Made by a program: the position numbers and the translations under genes
In this document: positions 2,428-13,710 of the stretch, piece after piece
Position numbering within the stretch: position 1 is the first letter of the stretch
How the letters are laid out: each line of letters begins with the position of its first letter
Virus record (IMG/VR): IMGVR_UViG_2917881069_000004
DNA: 31,007 bases
Source of the DNA: a virus
Taxonomy: Duplodnaviria; Heunggongvirae; Uroviricota; Caudoviricetes
Reading direction: 5' to 3' (one strand)
Notes under the pieces: generated by a model
Databases searched by the model: none
The model's input: only the letters and a program-made list of their open reading frames with translations
Told to the model about the DNA's origin: nothing

Positions 2428-3066
2428 TTAGATGCTCTTAATCACTTTTACCACACGCCCTACAACGGCTACGTCATCAACTGCACATTCAAAGGTTGTT
2501 TCTTCCTGATGAACAACAAGCTTATTTCCGGGAATTCGAGCTACTTTTACGATGCTTTTCACTCCATCAATATCAACAAGCCAAGAGCCATTACTGATCT
2601 GTTTTACAGATACATCAACAATAAAACTTTCTGTTGTCGTTTGTATGAATAGATAGTTTGACGAATCGCCCTCAACCAACCTGCTATCTAATAAAATTTC
2701 GTCATATGATTGAAGTTCACCATTTCTTAATTCTGTGTATTTGATACTGGGAGCTACGATTTTAGAAAGTGGTCTAATTGTGACGTCATTATCATTTTTG
2801 AGAATGTTTGAGTCACAGTTATCTGCATACATATCACCCTGTCCGGTTGCCAACCAAAGAAGCGAGATCCCGGTTTCTAGAGCACATTGAATTACCCACT
2901 CTGCTGGAAAGCTATCTCTTAAGTATCTGTTTGCCATGGTGCTTTTAGATACTTTTAAGTGTTCGCAGAGTTGTTGGCGTGAGCTGAAATTGTAGGCTTT
3001 TATCAGCCTGTTGATGGCATCACGACCCCCACTATCGTTTCCACCCTTGATTAGACTCATAATCAA
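2428..3066 (-). CDS. cI: Immunity repressor, 186-type CI family
   Basis: 212 aa. Position between int and the divergent early operon. N-terminal HTH-like region (CALETGISLLWLATGQG) and C-terminal motifs (WLVDIDG, FECAVDD, GRVVKVI) resemble phage 186 CI as recalled. AAGGGG sits 7 nt upstream of the ATG. Confidence 0.7.
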   Translation of the reverse strand: MIMSLIKGGNDSGGRDAINRLIKAYNFSSRQQLCEHLKVSKSTMANRYLRDSFPAEWVIQCALETGISLLWLATGQGDMYADNCDSNILKNDNDVTIRPLSKIVAPSIKYTELRNGELQSYDEILLDSRLVEGDSSNYLFIQTTTESFIVDVSVKQISNGSWLVDIDGVKSIVKVARIPGNKLVVHQEETTFECAVDDVAVVGRVVKVIKSI

Positions 3067-3143: not shown

Positions 3144-3425
3144 ATGATACGATTACAAACTAAGAGATACTGCACTATGAGCAACGACATTTCAATTCGT
3201 GTACCAAAAGTGATGGCGACACCAGCTGAGTTCGCGGAATGGGAAGGCCGCTCTCGCGGTTCGGTATATCAAATGATTCATAATGGAAAACTCGCTAAAT
3301 TCTTGGAAAGAAAAGAAAAACCGAAAGACAGAGTATGTATACGTTACCTTGAGTACAAAAAGGAACAAGTCAGGAAAAACATGGGCCAATCCAATTTCAA
3401 CTTTAATGTCATCGTTGGTGACTAA
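3144..3425 (+). CDS. apl: Apl/Cox-like small excisionase and switch regulator
   Basis: First gene of the rightward operon facing cI; 82-93 aa depending on start (alternative ATG at 3177, MSNDIS..). Size and position match 186 Apl / P2 Cox. Family assignment is by synteny only. Confidence 0.55.
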   Translation: MIRLQTKRYCTMSNDISIRVPKVMATPAEFAEWEGRSRGSVYQMIHNGKLAKFLERKEKPKDRVCIRYLEYKKEQVRKNMGQSNFNFNVIVGD

Positions 3426-3457: not shown

Positions 3458-3967
3458 ATGTTTGATTACAAGATTTCCAAACATCCGCATTTTGATGAAG
3501 CCTGTAGAGCTTTTGCACTACGTCACAATATGGCGAAGCTGGCAGAACGTGCAGGAATGAATGTTCAGACACTGCGAAACAAACTCAACCCAGATCAATC
3601 GCATCAGCTCACCGCACCAGAAATCTGGCTGCTTACCGATCTGACTGAAGATTCAACGCTGGTAGATGGCTTTCTGGCACAGATTCACTGCCTGCCATGC
3701 GTACCGATTAATGAAGTGGCAAAAGAGAAACTGCCGCATTACGTCATGAGTGCAACTGCAGAGATCGGGCGTGTTGCTGCAGGTGCGGTATCTGGCGATG
3801 TAAAAACCAGTGCAGGTCGTCGTGATGCTATCAGCAGCATTAACTCTGTAACACGATTGATGGCGCTGGCGGCTGTTTCATTGCAGGCCCGTTTACAGGC
3901 TAATCCTGCGATGGCGAGTGCAGTTGATACCGTGACTGGCCTCGGTGCTTCATTCGGTTTGCTGTGA
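3458..3967 (+). CDS. cII: CII-like lysogeny establishment regulator
   Basis: 169 aa, the same length as 186 CII; follows apl; strong RBS AAGGGGG before the ATG. Confidence 0.6.
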   Translation: MFDYKISKHPHFDEACRAFALRHNMAKLAERAGMNVQTLRNKLNPDQSHQLTAPEIWLLTDLTEDSTLVDGFLAQIHCLPCVPINEVAKEKLPHYVMSATAEIGRVAAGAVSGDVKTSAGRRDAISSINSVTRLMALAAVSLQARLQANPAMASAVDTVTGLGASFGLL

Positions 3968-5031: not shown

Positions 5032-5258
5032 TGGCTGATGCAATGGATCTCGTACAGCAGCGCGTTGAAGAAGAACGCCAGCGTCATATCCGTGCCGCCC
5101 GTGCCAAAACGCCGGGCGTGTCCCGCGTGCTTTGCATTGAGTGTGAAGCGCCAATTCCGCCAGCACGCCGCCGTGCCATTCCGGATGTGCAGCTTTGCAT
5201 TACCTGTCAGGAAATCGCAGAGCTGAAAGGCAAACATTACAACGGAGGTGCTGTATGA
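5031..5258 (+). CDS. TraR/DksA-family C4 zinc-finger protein
   Basis: 75 aa with CIEC...x17...CITC, the CxxC-x17-CxxC spacing typical of TraR/DksA-type phage proteins. Its stop overlaps the Dam start (ATGA). Confidence 0.7.
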   Translation: MADAMDLVQQRVEEERQRHIRAARAKTPGVSRVLCIECEAPIPPARRRAIPDVQLCITCQEIAELKGKHYNGGAV

Positions 5259-6112
5259 GCACCATCCTGAAATGGGCGGGAAATAAAACCGCCATTATGT
5301 CCGAACTGAAAAAGCATCTTCCTGCTGGCCCGCGACTGGTTGAACCTTTCGCGGGTTCCTGTGCAGTGATGATGGAGACGGAGTACCCCAGCTATCTTGT
5401 TGCGGATATTAATCCTGATTTAATCAACCTCTATAAAAAGGTTGCTGCTGATTGTGAATCGTTTATATCTCGCGCCAGAGTTTTATTTGAGATCGCAAAC
5501 AGGGAGGTGGCTTATTACAACATAAGGCAGGAGTTTAATTACTCAACTGAAATTACTGATTTCATGAAAGCGGTATATTTCCTGTATCTCAATCGTCACG
5601 GTTACCGTGGTTTATGTCGCTATAACAAGAGCGGGCATTTCAACATTCCCTACGGTAATTATAAAAATCCGTATTTCCCTGAAAAAGAAATTCGCGCATT
5701 TGCAGAAAAAGCCCAGCGAGCAACGTTTATCTGCGCCAGCTTTGATGAAACGCTGGCGATGTTGAAGGCGGGGGATGTGGTGTATTGCGATCCGCCGTAT
5801 GACGGTACGTTTTCCGGCTATCACACTGATGGCTTCACTGAGGATGACCAGTATCACCTGGCATCCGTTCTTGAACATCGATCATCTGAAGGTCATCCGG
5901 TCATTGTTTCTAACAGTGACACATCCCTGATTCGTTCGCTGTATCGCAATTTCACTCACCACTACATCAAGGCAAAACGCAGCATCGGCGTGTCGGCTGG
6001 CGAGAGTAAATCTGCAACAGAAATCATTGCTGTTTCCGGGGCGCGCTGCTGGGTGGGATTTGATCCTTCGCGTGGCGTGGATAGTTCTGCTGTGTACGAG
6101 GTGCGTGTATGA
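5255..6112 (+). CDS. dam: DNA N6-adenine methyltransferase (Dam-like), orphan
   Basis: About 285 aa starting [11 protein letters not shown] with GGAGG 7 nt upstream. Motif I-like PFAGSCAV and catalytic DPPY ([10 protein letters not shown]) are present. No adjacent restriction endonuclease candidate. Confidence 0.85.
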
Positions 6113-8522
6113 GTCATGACGATATGAGCAACTCTAGCGGCTTTAACGAGGCCGCAGCAGCATTTTCATGGAACGGCCCGAAAAAGGCCATTAACCCTTA
6201 TCTGGACCCGGCGGAAGTTGCGCCGGTTTCTGCGCTTTCAAACCTGATCACTCTGTACGCTGCCGATAACGAGCAGGAACAACTGCGCCGCGAGGCACTG
6301 AGTGATCAGGTCTGGGAGCGTTATTTCTTTAATGAATCCCGTGATCCTGTCCAACGCGAAATGGAGCAGGATAAGCTCATTAGCCGGGCAAAGCTGGCGC
6401 ATGAGCAGCAGCGTTTTAATCCAGATATGGTCATTCTGGCGGACGTCAATGCCCAGCCTTCCCATATCAGCAAGCCGCTGATGCAACGTATTGAATACTT
6501 CAGCAGCCTGGGCAGGCCAAAGGCTTATTCCCGCTATTTGCGTGAGACGATTAAGCCATGTCTGGAACGACTGGAGCATGTACGCGACAGTCAGCTATCC
6601 ACTTCTTTTCGCTTTATGGCAAGCCATGAAGGGCTGGACGGCCTGCTGATCCTGCCTGAAATGAGTCAGGATCAGGTGAAACGCTTGTCTACCCTTGTCG
6701 CTGCGCATATGAGCATGTGCCTTGATGCAGCTTGTGGCGATTTGTATGTCACCGATGACGTTAAGCCAGAAGAAATCCGCAATACATGGGAAAAGGTGGC
6801 AGCGGAAACCCTGCGTCTGGATGTCATCCCGCCTGCGTTTGAGCAACTCCGCCGGAAAAGAAACCGCCGTAAACCCGTGCCCTATGAACTCATTCCGGGT
6901 TCGCTGGCGCGTATGTTGTGCGCTGACTGGTGGTACCGGAAATTATGGAAGATGCGTTGCGAATGGCGGGAAGAGCAGTTGCGTGCTGTCTGCCTGGTCA
7001 GCAAAAAAGCATCTCCCTATGTCAGCTATGAAGCCGTGATGCATAAACGTGAGCAGCGCCGTAAGTCGCTGGAGTTTTTTCGTTCTCATGAACTGGTGAA
7101 CGAAGACGGCGACACGCTGGACATGGAGGATGTGGTAAACGCCAGCAGCAGCAACTCTGCGCATCGCCGCAATGAGATGATGGCCTGTGTTAAAGGCCTG
7201 GAGCTTATCGCGGAAATGCGCGGTGACTGCGCCGTTTTCTACACCATCACCTGTCCGTCACGTTTCCATTCCACGCTAAATAACGGCAGGCCCAACCCGA
7301 CCTGGACAAATGCGACGGTAAGACAAAGCAGTGATTATCTGGTCGGCATGTTTGCTGCATTTCGTAAGGCGATGCACAAAGCCGGATTGCGCTGGTATGG
7401 CGTGCGGGTGGCTGAGCCGCATCATGACGGTACAGTTCACTGGCACCTGTTGTGTTTTATGCGCAAAAAAGATCGCCGCGCCATTACTGCTTTGTTGCGT
7501 AAGTTTGCCATTCGTGAAGACCGCGAGGAGCTGGGGAATAACACGGGACCACGCTTTAAGTCTGAGTTGATTAACCCGCGCAAAGGAACGCCGACAAGCT
7601 ACATCGCGAAATATATCAGCAAGAACATTGACGGGCGTGGTCTGGCTGGCGAGATCAGCAAGGAAACGGGTAAATCTCTGCGTGATAACGCTGAATACGT
7701 TAATGCCTGGGCGTCTCTGCATCGTGTTCAGCAATTCCGCTTCTTTGGTATTCCGGGGCGTCAGGCTTACCGTGAACTGCGATTGCTGGCTGGTCAGGCG
7801 GCAAGGCAACAGGGCGACAAAAAGCAGGTGCGCCGGTACTGGATAACCCGCGCCTTGATGCCATCCTGGCTGCTGCTGATGCTGGTTGTTTTGCCACTTA
7901 CATCATGAAGCAGGGTGGTGTACTGGTTCCCCGCAAATATCACCTCATCAGAACTGCTTATGAAATTAACGAAGAGCCGACCGCCTATGGCGATCACGGC
8001 ATTCGTATTTATGGCATCTGGTCACCCATTGCAGAGGGCAAGATCTGCACTCATGCAGTGAAGTGGAAAATGGTTCGTAAAGCCGTTGACGTTCAGGAGG
8101 CGGTAGCCGACCAGGGCGCTTGCGCCCCTTGGACTCGTGGCAATAACTGTCCCCTTGCTGAAAATTTGAACCAACATGAGAAAGATAAATCAGCAGACGG
8201 GGATACCAGAACGGACATTTCCTGCATGGATGACAAGGAATTGCACGATTACCTGCACAGTATGGGCAAAAAAGAGCACCGGGAACTGGCAGCAAGATTA
8301 CGCCTGGTTAAACCGAAACGGCGTAAAGACCACAAACAGCGAATTACAGACCATCAGCGTCAGCAGCTCGTCTATGAACTGAAGTCCAGAGGATTTGATG
8401 GCAGCGAGAAAGAAGTCGATTTACTGCTTCGTGGCGGCAGTATTCCGTCAGGAGCAGGCCTGCGTATCTTCTATCGGAACCAGCGTTTGCAGGAAGATGA
8501 TAAGTGGCGGGATCTGTATTAA
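6109..8522 (+). CDS. A: Rolling-circle replication initiator (P2 gpA-like); apparent 1-nt frame shift near 7810-7820
   Basis: HUH-type motif [10 protein letters not shown]. Track ORFs 6109..7908 and 7905..8522 are continuous in sense (..QGDKK / [32 protein letters not shown]..) if the A5 run is A6. Confidence 0.8.
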
Positions 8523-8615
8523 TTACGCGGGTTAACAATTCGTGCTCTTAATAATACCAGGCATATCAGGCTGATGAACGTAAAAAAAACGTTTTACATC
8601 AGTAAGATTATTATA

Positions 8616-8635
8616 TACTGTAAATATAAACAGTG
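8616..8635 (+). promoter_or_regulatory. LexA (SOS) box overlapping a candidate promoter
   Basis: TACTGTAAATATAAACAGTG fits CTGT-N8-ACAG and matches 17 of 20 positions of the consensus TACTGTATATATATACAGTA. A -35-like TTTACA lies at 8593-8598. The box is 42 nt upstream of the 8677 ATG. Confidence 0.7.
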
Positions 8636-8676
8636 GTTATATATACAGTGTTGCGTATGGTGTTATAGGAGGAAAG

Positions 8677-8865
8677 ATGCAGGACTATTTTTGGGAGTCT
8701 TTGAAGCTCCAGCGCATTGATTTTTTTCTTAAGCTTGTAGCGGCTAGTGAGTGTAGCGATGAAGAGAAGGGGCTGGCTCTGCAGTGGGTTTCTGAATTGA
8801 CTGATGAGTTGATGGCGAAAATTCGAAGCCATGAATACAGTAGGTCGATGGATGTAATCAGTTGA
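8677..8865 (+). CDS. Small protein (62 aa) under a LexA box; candidate SOS-induced antirepressor or moron
   Basis: Strong RBS (TAGGAGGAAAG then ATG). Occupies the position of 186 tum (between A and cos) in a phage with a 186-type CI. No sequence resemblance to DinI recognised. Confidence 0.55.
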   Translation: MQDYFWESLKLQRIDFFLKLVAASECSDEEKGLALQWVSELTDELMAKIRSHEYSRSMDVIS

Positions 8866-8898
8866 GCTTGTTTCGTTAGGACTTGATAAGGGAACCGA

Positions 8899-8919
8899 AA
8901 AGGGGCATTAAGCCCCTTT
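8899..8919. terminator. Bidirectional hairpin between convergent genes
   Basis: AAAGGGGC-attaa-GCCCCTTT, an 8-bp stem, between the stop of 8677..8865 (+) and the stop of 8933..9232 (-). Flanking U-tracts are short. Confidence 0.45.
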
Positions 8920-8932
8920 CTCATAAGTTGAT

Positions 8933-9232
8933 TTAGTTGTTCCCCAAAGAGCCGGCCATGGCTGCATATTTAATTTCTTCGCTGGGTATTTCAGGATGTA
9001 GTTGAATTTGCCTGATGACATAGCCAGGAACTTCGTCACTCCACAGTTTCGCCGCGTCCTTACAGACCTTATACGCGAAGTCTCTATTCTCAAAGGCATA
9101 GGATTTTCCGTATGCATATTGCTGACAGGCATGAACATAAGCTCCGAAGTCGCCGTCTTTATCTGGCAAAGCACATCCAGCCAAGGCTATGATGATTGCT
9201 ACTAACGTAAAGGAGAAAGTTATACGTTTCAT
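8933..9232 (-). CDS. Small lipoprotein (99 aa), unknown function
   Basis: Signal peptide with lipobox LAGC (MKRITFSFTLVAIIIALAGC..). Located in the A-Q variable island. Confidence 0.65.
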   Translation of the reverse strand: MKRITFSFTLVAIIIALAGCALPDKDGDFGAYVHACQQYAYGKSYAFENRDFAYKVCKDAAKLWSDEVPGYVIRQIQLHPEIPSEEIKYAAMAGSLGNN

Positions 9233-9340
9233 GGTCTCTTTCTAAGCGTTTAGCATTATTTAACTAAGGGGTATCTGCCGTGATTTGGTAGTCCCTGATA
9301 TATATTCTCAGGGACTATGCTGAAGTAGCTTTAATTTCGA

Positions 9341-10147
9341 TTATTTAGAAAGGTACTTATCTCTAAGTTGATTCAGTCTGTCAGCATCGCGTTCTGAAAA
9401 CTCGGCGTCACCATAGATCGATTTCCCATCTGCGTCTTCAAGGCCAATGACTGTGACGGTAAATATAGCATCAGCCGGAACTTTAAGTTTTCCCCAATCA
9501 GAGTATCTATTAGGGGCTAATTTCCAGTTGGCTTTCTCACCTGGTTCCAGACCTCCAGAAATTTTATAGTTGAAGACGTCAGAGAACCAAGGGACGCTTC
9601 TTCCTGGACTGGCAATAACTCCTTTGAAGAATACTCTGGCAACCGCTTTGTCTGTTCCGTTTTCAACGCTAATATCCAGAATTGGCTGATCATTGCCGTA
9701 ATCCTCTTTCTGGAAATAAAAACGGGAACGTTCGACCTTGAAGGCTTTCATTTTTTCCGCAGCCTGTGTTGCAGAGGTTTGTTTGGCTTCCAGTTCTTTT
9801 ATTTCTTGCAGAGCCTGTTCTTTCTCTCTCTTCTCACGCTCAAGGCGAATAGTTTGTGCGTAATTTATAACCTCATCACCAGTTTTACCTTCCAACGCTG
9901 ACTTAATTTTTGTTTCGTAGACGTCCCCAGAAGACGTTCCAGCCTGCATTAGCTCTCTCATGTTGATTTGGCTAAAGGCAACGACTTTAACTGCATCATC
10001 AAACTGAGCTTTTTTATCTGCAGGTAAGGACTCTCTTACTTTTTGAATGGACTCTTTCATCGACTGATCGCTTGATGCATCGATCTTCGGTTTGTCACAA
10101 GCAGTAAGCAGCAGAGCAAAAGCAATTACGCCAGTTAATTTCTTCAT
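9341..10147 (-). CDS. Lipoprotein (about 267 aa), unknown function
   Basis: Track ORF 9341..10219. The likely true start is the internal ATG at 10147 (MKKLTGVIAFALLLTAC, lipobox LLTAC), because the upstream extension is the translation of a hairpin plus T-run. Central Lys/Glu-rich predicted coiled region. Confidence 0.65.
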   Translation of the reverse strand: MKKLTGVIAFALLLTACDKPKIDASSDQSMKESIQKVRESLPADKKAQFDDAVKVVAFSQINMRELMQAGTSSGDVYETKIKSALEGKTGDEVINYAQTIRLEREKREKEQALQEIKELEAKQTSATQAAEKMKAFKVERSRFYFQKEDYGNDQPILDISVENGTDKAVARVFFKGVIASPGRSVPWFSDVFNYKISGGLEPGEKANWKLAPNRYSDWGKLKVPADAIFTVTVIGLEDADGKSIYGDAEFSERDADRLNQLRDKYLSK

Positions 10148-10161
10148 ATCCCTATCCCAAT

Positions 10162-10197
10162 CGTAAAAAAACAAGGCTAATCCTAACAGGATTAGCT
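10162..10197 (-). terminator. Terminator-like hairpin plus U-tract in the leader of the lipoprotein gene
   Basis: On the minus strand CTAATCCT-gtt-AGGATTAG (perfect 8-bp stem) is followed by CCTTGTTTTTTT, 15 nt upstream of the ATG at 10147. A candidate -35/-10 pair (TTTATA-17-TATGAG) lies just upstream. Confidence 0.5.
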
Positions 10198-10662
10198 GGC
10201 ATGACAAACTCATAGCCATATAGGTGTGCTGTATAAATTAGCGGGATGAGAAAGCCTGCGCAGCCCCTCATGTTGAAACTTGATTTTAGCTCAAAAGAGC
10301 TGACACTAAATAACTGCGCGGAATAATGCTCCACTTTCGGTTAGCCCTTGCTGGGTAAGGCGTGGGGCCGTTTTCTTCGCCTGATCCTGCTGTATCTGGC
10401 CTACAGTATGTTGCCCTTACGCGACATGCCACATGTCAGTAAACGGCAGGTGTAGCAGTATTAGACGCAGCTATTTAGTGTGTATTAAGCTGGCTCATAT
10501 TTATGACTGGTTTCAAGGTTTGACCGATTTTCATGTCATGCATGTCTATGCTGCATGAGTTCGCATGATCGTTTGAGGATCGGTTTGGCTAAGACATGCC
10601 AGAACTGGCGGGCTTTTGCTCATGTCATGCAGGTGCATGAAAACCACTACATAAAGCGGGCA

Positions 10663-10841: not shown

Positions 10842-11885
10842 TCAGCTTCGTTTGCCCTTAAGTCCTAAGTCATAGGCTTCAAAACGGATAACCTCTTCAT
10901 CCAGCCAGTCATTCAGCTCCTGCAGTCGCTTTTGCAGGGGCATCAGTTCATTGCGGACGAAGACACGGCTCGCTTTTTCCACATCCCCAAAGCCGCCAGT
11001 GTTGTTGGGAATGATGCCCATCATTTGCGGCGGTACGCGGTGAGCCGCCATCATGTCATCGCGGCTGACGTTCTTGATGTTCAGAAATTCATCCTTCGCC
11101 GCGACTTCCGACAACGGGATAATCTGAATGCCATCTTTTTTGCCGTTAGGCGAGTACATAAACAGGTTGCGGAAGTTGCCCGGTCCTTTAGCACTTTTCA
11201 TTGCCTTGCGGATGTTGTTCACATCCTCCTGGTTCTGTGCGGCGTCGGTCATGTACATGATGAAGCCTGCGTGGCTGCCGTTAATGTAATACTTGCGGCG
11301 GAACAGCGTGGCGGATTCGTTGAGCAGAGCTGACGGAATGGCAGAAAGGTAACCCGGCAGACCATAAATCTCCTGGTTGATATCCGGCTCCATCAGGTGG
11401 AAGACGTTACCTTTTGTGAACTGATACGGCTGTGTCGTCAGGCTGTATTGCACAAACCAGTATGTTTCAAGGTCAAGCCCGCGTCGGGTGTATTTTGCCA
11501 GTGCAGGCTCCAGCGAAATAACTTCACCAAAGCGGTTCGTGCGTTTCTCCAGGTAGGCGTTACCAAAAACCAGATAGTCCTGCACAAAACGGGTAAATGC
11601 CTGCTGGCTGAGAAGGCGATGTGGAATATAGGTACTGCTGATAATGTCACGCTTAACACTGATCGGGGAGCTGTGGTGCACGGCGGCGCGGAAGGTGCGC
11701 GCCAGTCCGTCAAAGCTGACGGGTGGCTCATACCAGCGATCCATCTGTACGCATTCCACATAGTCCAGCAGTTCGCGGCGGTCCAGTACAGGAATGGGAT
11801 CACCAAAGCTGAAAGCCTCCGCAACGGGTTTTTTAGTTTCTTCTGCAGTTACGGTTTCGCCTGGCGCGATATGTTCTTTCATCAA
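10842..11885 (-). CDS. Q: Portal protein (P2 gpQ-like)
   Basis: 347 aa (P2 Q is about 344 aa). Start overlaps the terminase stop. Position next to cos. Confidence 0.85.
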   Translation of the reverse strand: MMKEHIAPGETVTAEETKKPVAEAFSFGDPIPVLDRRELLDYVECVQMDRWYEPPVSFDGLARTFRAAVHHSSPISVKRDIISSTYIPHRLLSQQAFTRFVQDYLVFGNAYLEKRTNRFGEVISLEPALAKYTRRGLDLETYWFVQYSLTTQPYQFTKGNVFHLMEPDINQEIYGLPGYLSAIPSALLNESATLFRRKYYINGSHAGFIMYMTDAAQNQEDVNNIRKAMKSAKGPGNFRNLFMYSPNGKKDGIQIIPLSEVAAKDEFLNIKNVSRDDMMAAHRVPPQMMGIIPNNTGGFGDVEKASRVFVRNELMPLQKRLQELNDWLDEEVIRFEAYDLGLKGKRS

Positions 11886-13646
11886 AAAATCTCCACAATA
11901 TTGCTGGTATTGGCGGACTCGCCCTGCAGCGGTTCGTTAAACAGTGCGTGCATGGTTGCCCATGCCAGATCGGCGTGGCTGGCTTCTTCGCTGCGGCTGG
12001 CTTCGTAGGTCGGGCGGTTGCCACTGGCGGTGGTGGCGCGACGGATTGCCATGAATGACTGCGCAATGTCGGTATGTCCGGCGTCAAACTCCAGACGGCG
12101 GTGGCTGATAATGTCGTAGGCCTTGAGTACCAGGGCGTTTTTAACGTTGGGGTTGTAGACAAACTCCCGGACGGCAGGAAAGAACGCTTTCACGTTCTCG
12201 TAAACCCCGTGACCGACGCCGGTTGAGTCGATACCGATATAGGTCACGTTGTACTGTTCGGTCAGTTTTTTGATGGCGTCAGCTGGGCGCGGAAGTCCAT
12301 CCCGCGCCACTGGTGACGCTCAAGAATGCGGAACTTACCGCCTGGCACGGCTGGCGGTGCCACCACCACGCATCCGGCGCTGTCGCCGTTCTGCGTACCT
12401 TTTGCCGGGTCATAACCGATCCACACTTCGCGCCAGCCAAACGGGCGCAGGGCCAGTGCATGAAAGTCGGTCCAGACTTCCCAGCTGTCCACCATGCACG
12501 CCTGCAATTCGCTGAGCGGGAACACAGATGCGAGATCGTCAACGAACTCGCACATCAGCAGGTTCTGGTATTCGTCCGGGCTGTACTCCATGCGCAACTG
12601 GTCGAGGTCGAACAGGTTACAGCCGCCGCGTACCGCATCTTCCACGGTGATTATCTGGCGGTATTGCCCGTCTGCGCACAGCAGGCCGGGGGCCAGATTG
12701 CTGTGGGACAGGTCGATGTCCACCTTATCGGCTTTGTTGCGCCCACGGTTGAACAGCGCACCGGACCAGAACGGATAAGCACTGTGTGTCAGGCTGGATG
12801 GCGTGGAAAAATAGGTCTGTCGCCATTTCTTGTGAATAGCCATACCGGAAGCCACTTTGCGCAGCTCCTGGAATTTCGGTATCCAGAAATATTCATCCAG
12901 ATACAGGTTGCCGTGGTAACTCTGGGCCGTGCGGGCATTGGTGCCGAGGAAATACAGTGTGGCCCCGTTGGGAAGCACCATCGGATCGCCTTTCAGCTCC
13001 ACCTCCACTTCTTTGGCGAAGTCGATGATGTACTGCTTAAAGACGTGGGCCTGTGCCTTACTGGCAGAAAGGAAAATCTGGTTACGTCCGGTAAGCAGGG
13101 CGTCAATCAGGGCTTCACGGGCAAAGTAAAAGGTCGCACCGATCTGGCGTGACTTCAGCAGGTTGCGGATGCGGTTGGTTTTTCCGGCTTCCCACCAGTG
13201 GCGCTGGTAGTTGAACATGGAGGAATGGAAGATTTCTTCCAGCTTCTCAATCTGTTCATCGGTGAAAACGTTCTTTTCCGGCTGACGACGCGGGCCTTTG
13301 TTGCGGTTGGCGACGTTAGGGTTTAAGTCGCTTCGTTGCCGCCATTGTTAAACTTGCCGATCCGCGCGTGGCGCTCCGACTGGCGCGCCAGCAGGTCAAT
13401 CTCTTTGAAATCTTTCCCTTCTTTGTGCTCCTTCATAATGAGCTGGCAGTAGCGTGCGGCGGTGGTGAGCTGCATCTGATCCAGCGGCCCATAATCACCC
13501 CACTTGTCGCGTTTTTTCCAGCTGTGAACGGTTGCAACTTTCTCGCCCAGCATTTCAGCAATGCGGGCTACGCGGTATCCCTGAAAGTACAGCAGCATGG
13601 CCTGCCGACGGGGATCGAGATCTGCGGGTGTCAGTGTGGTGTTCAT
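11882..13646 (-). CDS. P: Terminase large (ATPase) subunit (P2 gpP-like); two apparent 1-nt frame shifts
   Basis: Three track ORFs (13323..13646, 12262..13218, 11882..12310) tile one gene of about 588 codons. Junctions lie near 13327-13347 and near 12285-12300 (ccc run). The sense continues across both junctions. Confidence 0.8.
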
Positions 13647-13692
13647 GGCACAAACCTACAGCCTTGAATGAAGGCTTTCCCCGCCTGCGGTT

Positions 13693-13710
13693 TGTGTGGT
13701 TGTCGGTACA
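13693..13710 (+). promoter_or_regulatory. Late-promoter activator dyad TGT-N12-ACA (PO-like)
   Basis: TGTgtggttgtcggtACA in the P/O divergent intergenic region, centred about 87 nt upstream of the O start. P2 late promoters carry this dyad near -55 (established). Confidence 0.55.

Follow-up and report, generated by a model that had tools for sequence, protein, structure and literature searches.

A probable SOS-induction module in a P2/186/Fels-2-like prophage: tumA behind a predicted double LexA operator

Gene order and features of the locus

The window, as we call the whole stretch of DNA analysed here (31,007 nucleotides, IMG/VR virus record IMGVR_UViG_2917881069_000004), is a P2/186/Fels-2-like prophage. 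Its left part holds the genes for an integrase, the CI repressor, an Apl/Cox-like protein and CII, and is followed by a series of genes that leads to replication gene A (Table 1). A 62-aa open reading frame, here named tumA, lies 3' of gene A and 5' of the portal gene, at the right end of the early region, which is the position of tum in phage 186, as had been pointed out in an earlier note made from the sequence alone. Rightward of this region, two minus-strand lipoprotein genes are found, and after these the portal and terminase genes.

Table 1. Coordinates of the genes and sequence features in the window
Feature	Position	Strand	Remarks
Integrase gene	1400-2425	minus	left part of the window
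cI, 186-type immunity repressor, 212 aa, presumed TumA target	2428-3066	minus	Pfam and PDB matches
apl/cox-like gene	3144-3425		left part of the window
cII	3458-3967		left part of the window
DUF5347, DUF2732 and TraR/DksA genes			between cII and the Dam methylase gene
Dam methylase gene	5195-6112		
Replication gene A	6109-8522		
-35 hexamer of the tumA promoter, TTTACA	8593-8598	plus	read by eye; at least 97% conserved in 84 Fels-2-type loci
-10 hexamer, TACTGT	8616-8621	plus	first six bases of box 1; layout as in 186 p95
LexA (SOS) box 1, TACTGTAAATATAAACAGTG	8616-8635		17/20 positions as in the consensus
Predicted LexA (SOS) box 2, CAGTGGTTATATATACAGTG	8631-8650		overlaps box 1 by 5 nt; PWM score 17.2 bits
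Shine-Dalgarno sequence, AGGAGG	8667-8672	plus	read from the sequence; invariant in related loci
tumA, 62 aa, ATG start	8677-8865	plus	homologous to the N-terminal half of 186 Tum
GC-rich hairpin, AAAGGGGC-ATTAA-GCCCCTTT	8899-8919		sequence and fold; between convergent tumA and minus-strand cargo

The identical gene arrangement is present, at 98% identity, in about 20 E. coli chromosomes, and the segment running from the end of gene A through the operator to tumA occurs in 1113 of 5426 complete E. coli genomes and, beyond this species, in Salmonella, Klebsiella, Cronobacter, Enterobacter and others. Synteny was compared with 186, PSP3, Fels-2, E. coli S56 and E. coli HS. In every locus holding the three genes (107/107), tumA is located between gene A and the portal gene, with a 186-type CI and CII encoded upstream.

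Beyond the integrase gene there are two small minus-strand ORFs (490-870 and 1202-1387), at the prophage end or in its flank, which have no PADLOC match and no convincing family, the best being DUF4709 at E 0.001, under the cut-off. A 9.1-kb circular element, the Klebsiella pneumoniae plasmid p1878-9k (NZ_CP072999.1, 2001-3897), shares with the window, at 98% identity, the end of gene A and the promoter of tumA. The match stops at box 1, ~360 nt upstream of a gene for a group II intron reverse transcriptase/maturase.

The 62-aa product and its relationship to Tum

The ORF begins with an ATG behind the AGGAGG sequence, and its pN/pS of 0.10 (29 DNA alleles) indicates that the protein is under purifying selection. 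No match to the 62-aa sequence was found in Pfam, in PADLOC or in a PDB sequence search, and pairwise BLASTP gave no alignment with either 186 Tum or PSP3 TumA, so that the homology between TumA and Tum rests on profiles. The ORF matches phrog_698 (E 5e-37), phrog_8554 (2e-8) and phrog_1993 (2e-3), and residues 1-61 of 186 Tum match the same three families, in register, at 2e-5, 1e-11 and 1e-22, respectively, with PSP3 TumA matching phrog_1993 at 3e-32. Comparison of a 34-sequence family alignment with 186 Tum by hhalign gave a probability of 95.4% (E 2e-8), with residues 4-46 aligned to residues 4-46, and the corresponding match to PSP3 TumA was weak (E 3e-3). A profile search of 1.84 billion representative proteins retrieved 88 clusters of 55-75-aa proteins, which have in common the motif ...LQRI.L..RLV....C...DKELA..W.AEL, and the 146-aa Tum fusions were not among its matches at E <= 1e-3. 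AF2 models TumA as a hairpin of two helices (residues 2-23 and 28-61; pLDDT 88.7), for which Foldseek searches against the PDB and BFVD returned generic hairpin matches, none of them at E <= 0.001.

By these sequence comparisons, the ORF is identified as TumA, the upstream half of a split tum gene. According to a published account (PMC3121763), tum is split into two genes by a stop codon in Fels-2 and PSP3, and in PSP3 the antirepressor activity is reported to reside in the upstream gene. Both phages (STM2728/STM2726.1 in Fels-2, tumA/tumB in PSP3) have a small upstream gene with a LexA box in the same position as in the window. TumA is 94% identical to STM2728 of Fels-2, whereas PSP3 TumA belongs to a different PHROG (1993), is just marginally similar to the window protein and is preceded by a single SOS box. 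In the case of 186, Tum (146 aa) is a fusion with a C-terminal DinI-like domain, which the window TumA does not have; the two are homologous over residues 4-46, and share the promoter/operator layout and a 186-type CI as the presumed target, but 186 has a single consensus box and the window has two overlapping ones. The 62-aa protein had been suggested to be perhaps a "divergent or minimal antirepressor", a description that has to be replaced, as its gene is instead the known upstream gene of a split tum, like those of PSP3 and Fels-2. In other words, the gene is already known: it is the LexA-controlled tum (tumA) of 186/Fels-2-like prophages, here found without its DinI-like partner.

The absence of DinI-like similarity in the ORF, remarked upon earlier, agrees with the lack of any DinI-like match in it in Pfam and PHROG, and is explained by the DinI half being a separate gene. 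In Fels-2, just 10 nt separate STM2728 from the next gene, which is of the DinI family and whose annotation notes a similarity to PSP3 TumB, and a DinI-like tumB lies 10-14 nt downstream of tumA in 76 of the 84 Fels-2-type loci. This gene is missing from the window and seven relatives, and no DinI-like ORF was detected anywhere in the window by tblastn or HMM. The homology with tumB-carrying Fels-2-type phages ends at position 8866, one base past the tumA stop codon, and by this comparison tumB has been lost in the window lineage. Among the more distant loci tumA is found without tumB in 26 of 42, and TumB is evidently dispensable in evolution.

The GC-rich hairpin that lies downstream of tumA is likely a bidirectional terminator, as judged from its sequence and fold; a consensus terminator scan did not call it. 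The minus-strand cargo beyond it (8933-10219) consists of the genes for a 99-aa lipoprotein (phrog_7666) and a 292-aa DUF6694 lipoprotein, neither of which has a PADLOC match. The stretch from tumA to the portal gene is variable, and Fels-2 and E. coli HS have tumB and orf97-like genes there instead.

Promoter and operator of tumA

Box 1 is the only site in the 31 kb of the window with three or fewer mismatches to the LexA consensus TACTGTATATATATACAGTA, no site within three mismatches was obtained in 100 dinucleotide-preserving shuffles, and the pattern CTGT-N8-ACAG occurs once in the window, at box 1. With an approximate LexA position weight matrix (PWM) built from 29 known E. coli sites, box 1 scores 24.4 bits (training-site median, 20.4 bits) and ranks first in the window, ahead of box 2 (17.2 bits) and of the next site (9.1 bits). 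The near-consensus LexA box reported earlier is thereby confirmed, also by the weight-matrix scoring, and it is nearly invariant among 84 related loci. Since the PWM reveals no further LexA-like site, tumA is the only SOS input in the window.

The placement of this box on the likely -10 region of a promoter, as had been suggested, is in line with the arrangement TTTACA-N17-TACTGT. The same layout is seen in p95, the SOS-dependent promoter annotated in 186 (TTCACA-N18-TACTGT), whose LexA box also begins at the -10 and whose spacer is 18 nt long, against 17 nt in the window. A generic sigma-70 promoter and terminator scan of positions 8400-9400 called nothing, a silence explained by the -10 matching at just three of six positions, and the tumA promoter was therefore assigned from its analogy with p95 and from conservation. 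Per-column conservation across the -35, spacer and box 1 is at least 90-97% in the 84 close relatives, the promoter/box layout is repeated upstream of every diverged family member fetched, and a LexA box precedes tumA in nearly all of the diverged lineages. A search of positions 8300-9300 against Rfam gave one chance-level match and no RNA element.

The earlier note had described a single SOS box, which stands as box 1, but a second, overlapping candidate was found at 8631-8650. With the same approximate matrix, box 2 falls within the range of known sites (12.8-27.3 bits) and within that of colicin second boxes (15.8-18.9 bits). Its left half reads GTGG where the consensus has CTGT. The ACAG half-site is conserved in the 84 relatives, no stretch of the region varies more than the central spacer (8641-8643), and this combination of a conserved half-site with a free spacer is the pattern expected of a LexA site.

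A BLAST search of the 71-nt operator region against plasmids gave about 1000 records, and in the four small plasmids inspected the operator match is directly upstream of colicin-like or bacteriocin genes. These plasmid operators read (A/G/T)(A/C)CTGTATATAAAACCAGTG(G/A)TTATAT(A/G)TACAGTA, with a spacing identical to that of the window and with the junction CAGTGGTTATAT common to both. The geometry CTGT-N8-(A/C)CAGTGGTTATAT(A/G)TACAGT is thus found both in the colicin/klebicin operons and in the window, and a klebicin-type promoter is identical to the window operator at 30 of 35 positions. By colicin-type we mean a pair of boxes that share a few bases and have the junction CAGTGG. In contrast to the window, where the -10 is inside box 1, colicin promoters have both boxes just downstream of the -10, and the gene that follows the operator is unrelated to tumA. 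The double overlapping boxes of colicin operons are reported to bind two LexA dimers, which is reported to give tight, delayed induction (PMC2994835).

A single SOS box is present in 186, in PSP3 and in the more distant TumA lineages, and the Fels-2-type operator is ~15 nt longer than these single-box operators. We predict from the sequence that 8616-8650 is a colicin-type double overlapping operator, which, by analogy with the colicin operons, we infer would bind two LexA dimers and give tight, late induction. It could also be that LexA binds box 1 alone, that "box 2" is simply the AT-rich start of the promoter and that the likeness to colicin operators is coincidental. Such a reading draws on the GTGG left half of box 2 and on the fact that one box suffices in the more distant lineages; we nevertheless judge it unlikely, given that the box 2 score is inside the known range and equal to those of colicin second boxes, that its ACAG half-site is kept while the spacer is free to vary, and that its junction of 19 nt is identical to that of promoters reported to bind two LexA dimers.

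The 19-nt junction CAGTGGTTATAT[A/G]TACAGT is identical between window positions 8616-8650 and loci L087, L089 and L090 (~1500-1545). This identity between phage and colicin/klebicin operators may reflect common descent or a structural constraint.

TumA, the CI repressor and prophage induction

The function and regulation of tumA have already been demonstrated in near-identical orthologues. In the Phollow study (Nat Microbiol 2025), "tum" was deleted in DuoHS, a P2-like prophage carried by E. coli HS, and either this deletion or a lexA(Ind-) allele abolished mitomycin C-induced lysis and the formation of virion foci (PMC12055606). The deletion primers given in the preprint (...ATAGGAGGAAAGATG fused to TGAGGTGACTTTTATGCGCATTG; PMC11195241) fall precisely on the start and stop codons of ECHS_RS04495 in the E. 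coli HS chromosome, and the deletion spares the downstream DinI-like gene. ECHS_RS04495 encodes a 62-aa "hypothetical protein" that is identical to TumA at 60 of 62 residues, and its -35, box 1 and box-2 half-sites are identical to those of the window. The DuoHS gene is positioned 3' of gene A, as in the window, but it is followed after 10 nt by the DinI-like gene, which the window does not have, and the DuoHS CI (189 aa) is 38% identical to the window CI (212 aa). The mutagen MX induced the operon STM2726-2727-2728 in a Fels-2-carrying Salmonella, with STM2727 going up 5.5 to 14.8-fold (PMC2225428). As for 186, its Tum has been reported to bind and sequester CI, keeping it from its operators without cleaving it (PMC7708051, PMC3121763).

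The earlier note had left open whether the ORF encodes an antirepressor or an SOS-induced moron. The antirepressor half of this alternative is upheld, by the profile homology to Tum and by the deletion of the E. coli HS orthologue. An accessory gene playing no part in the lysis-lysogeny decision might be imagined from the empty Pfam, PADLOC and PDB searches, the position at the edge of a variable cargo region and the "hypothetical protein" of the databases. This is contradicted already by the E. coli HS deletion, where removal of a 97%-identical orthologue abolishes induction, and further by the homology to Tum and by the strict synteny with a 186-type CI and a LexA box, kept in lineages down to about 30% identical, all of which makes a moron extremely improbable. 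The gene can safely be named a Tum-family antirepressor (TumA), which is of value for annotation, as PGAP and other sources label it "hypothetical protein" or, wrongly, "levan regulatory protein".

The window CI matches Phage_CI_repr (PF07022, 1.4e-32) and Phage_CI_C (PF16452, 2.6e-35) in Pfam, as well as the crystal structure of 186 CI (PDB 2FJR, E 1.1e-28), and it has no Pfam match to Peptidase_S24 at E <= 0.1. The view that the resident repressor is of the 186 type, and not of the self-cleaving kind, is therefore sustained. Direct support is obtained here for the operator and for the layout of the promoter, as well as for Tum homology, synteny and CI type, and LexA dependence and the requirement for induction have been established experimentally in near-identical orthologues, from which they would extend to the window by analogy. 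Taken together, the region is very probably the SOS-induction module of a P2/186/Fels-2-like prophage, in which a LexA-repressed tumA inactivates the 186-type CI. In undamaged cells, LexA would occupy the double operator (8616-8650), covering the -10 and the start of the promoter and keeping tumA silent. Upon DNA damage, activated RecA would promote LexA self-cleavage, and tumA would be transcribed. The two-helix hairpin of TumA would then inactivate CI stoichiometrically, without cleavage, relieving the lytic promoter and allowing lytic development.

The proposed logic is one known from other phage types. The Gifsy proteins GfoA/GftA, FsoA of Fels-1 and AntC of N15 are LexA-repressed small antirepressors directed against non-cleavable repressors, as proposed here for TumA. 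No sequence relationship with TumA was detected and the repressor families are also different, so that the likeness is one of analogy only. Some of these antirepressors act on non-cognate repressors (PMC3121763).

The outcome of induction in this particular prophage may be another matter. Relative to the intact 2415-nt gene A of E. coli S56, a relative with 97-98% identity against which the indels were called, a one-base deletion in an A-run near 7818 divides the window gene A into two ORFs, 6109-7908 and 7905-8522, which makes it either a pseudogene or the site of a sequencing error, and the terminase ATPase gene P (11882-13700) is broken into several ORFs by one-base deletions near 12282 and 13329. 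These indels suggest either homopolymer sequencing errors or a decaying prophage, and the prophage may be defective, in which case de-repression need not yield phage. An intact module in a decaying prophage, where SOS-induced TumA would do no more than de-repress abortively, or would work in trans on further P2-like prophages, is what the broken gpA and terminase genes would point to; we consider it possible but rather doubtful, given that all three changes shorten homopolymer runs, as is typical of sequencing errors, and that tumA, the operator, cI, cII and the structural genes are otherwise intact.

The window CI is 32% identical to 186 CI and 38% to DuoHS CI, mostly in the helix-turn-helix (HTH) domain. 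Action of TumA on it is an extrapolation, as the CI tested in DuoHS is just 38% identical; we infer that TumA binds the window CI, probably on the conserved HTH domain. In 74 loci with both tumA and cI, TumA is at least 95% identical, while the 47 distinct CI sequences (about 190, 210 or 310 aa long) have pairwise identities of 33-100%, with a median of 46%, and no correlation exists between the two proteins (rho -0.03). This lack of covariation at close range counts against the model, being unusual for a specific protein-protein inhibitor. Covariation was also analysed at the scale of the family, with 90 unique combinations from lineages down to about 30% identical, the distant TumA lineages having been gathered by single-protein scans of viral contigs. 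At this scale TumA identity follows the phage backbone, with r = 0.95 for CII. Given CII, the partial correlation between TumA and the N-terminal (HTH) domain of CI is 0.38 (permutation p about 5e-4), and that with the C-terminal domain is 0.00 (90 combinations), tests of this kind being inflated by shared ancestry. The HTH domain, roughly residues 30-75 of the window CI, is also the best-conserved part of CI among the partners of TumA, with a column conservation of 0.85-0.90. These data are only suggestive of the CI N-terminal domain as the TumA contact.

That TumA follows the backbone far better than it follows CI, and is nearly invariant while CI is swapped, could mean that the 62-aa protein induces the prophage without touching CI, through Apl, CII, a host factor or a modulation of RecA/LexA; the E. 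coli HS paper itself says that Tum "inhibits pro-lysogenic regulators" and is no more specific (PMC12055606). We regard this as improbable, considering the homology of TumA to the part of 186 Tum whose product reportedly binds and sequesters CI, the covariation with the HTH domain, which persists after the backbone is controlled for, and the conservation of this domain among TumA partners, which offers a plausible common docking surface.

If direct inactivation of CI is retained, a near-invariant TumA facing diverse CI proteins fits two readings: a generalist docking on the HTH domain, or some of the pairings being non-functional. A tentative extension of the first, which we put forward as a possibility of limited likelihood, would have TumA as a generalist "master key" that docks on the HTH surface of 186-type CIs and inactivates many heteroimmune variants, with the colicin-type operator of the Fels-2 lineage confining induction to deep, sustained SOS and with TumB dispensable, as the tumB-less lineage of the window suggests. 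Identity among these CI variants falls as low as 57% in the N-terminal domain and 22% in the C-terminal domain. Were this reading true, a single SOS-induced copy of TumA could wake several P2-like prophages in a cell.

The tumA module decides the timing of induction in a very common prophage family. The finding is correct but ordinary, as the module is already known; what has been added to the earlier note is the double SOS box, the missing tumB, and a TumA that is at least 95% identical facing CIs down to 33%. These three features bear on cross-talk between prophages and on induction thresholds, and none of them alters the accepted view of 186-like phage induction.

The CI proteins of some relatives have a different architecture. 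A 186-type CI of 308-318 aa with two tandem HTH domains is encoded in locus L005 (2903-3844) and in several IMG/VR loci, among them L031, L040, L056, L061, L082 and L086, where it is paired with the same 95%-identical TumA, and the CI of PSP3 likewise has two HTH domains.
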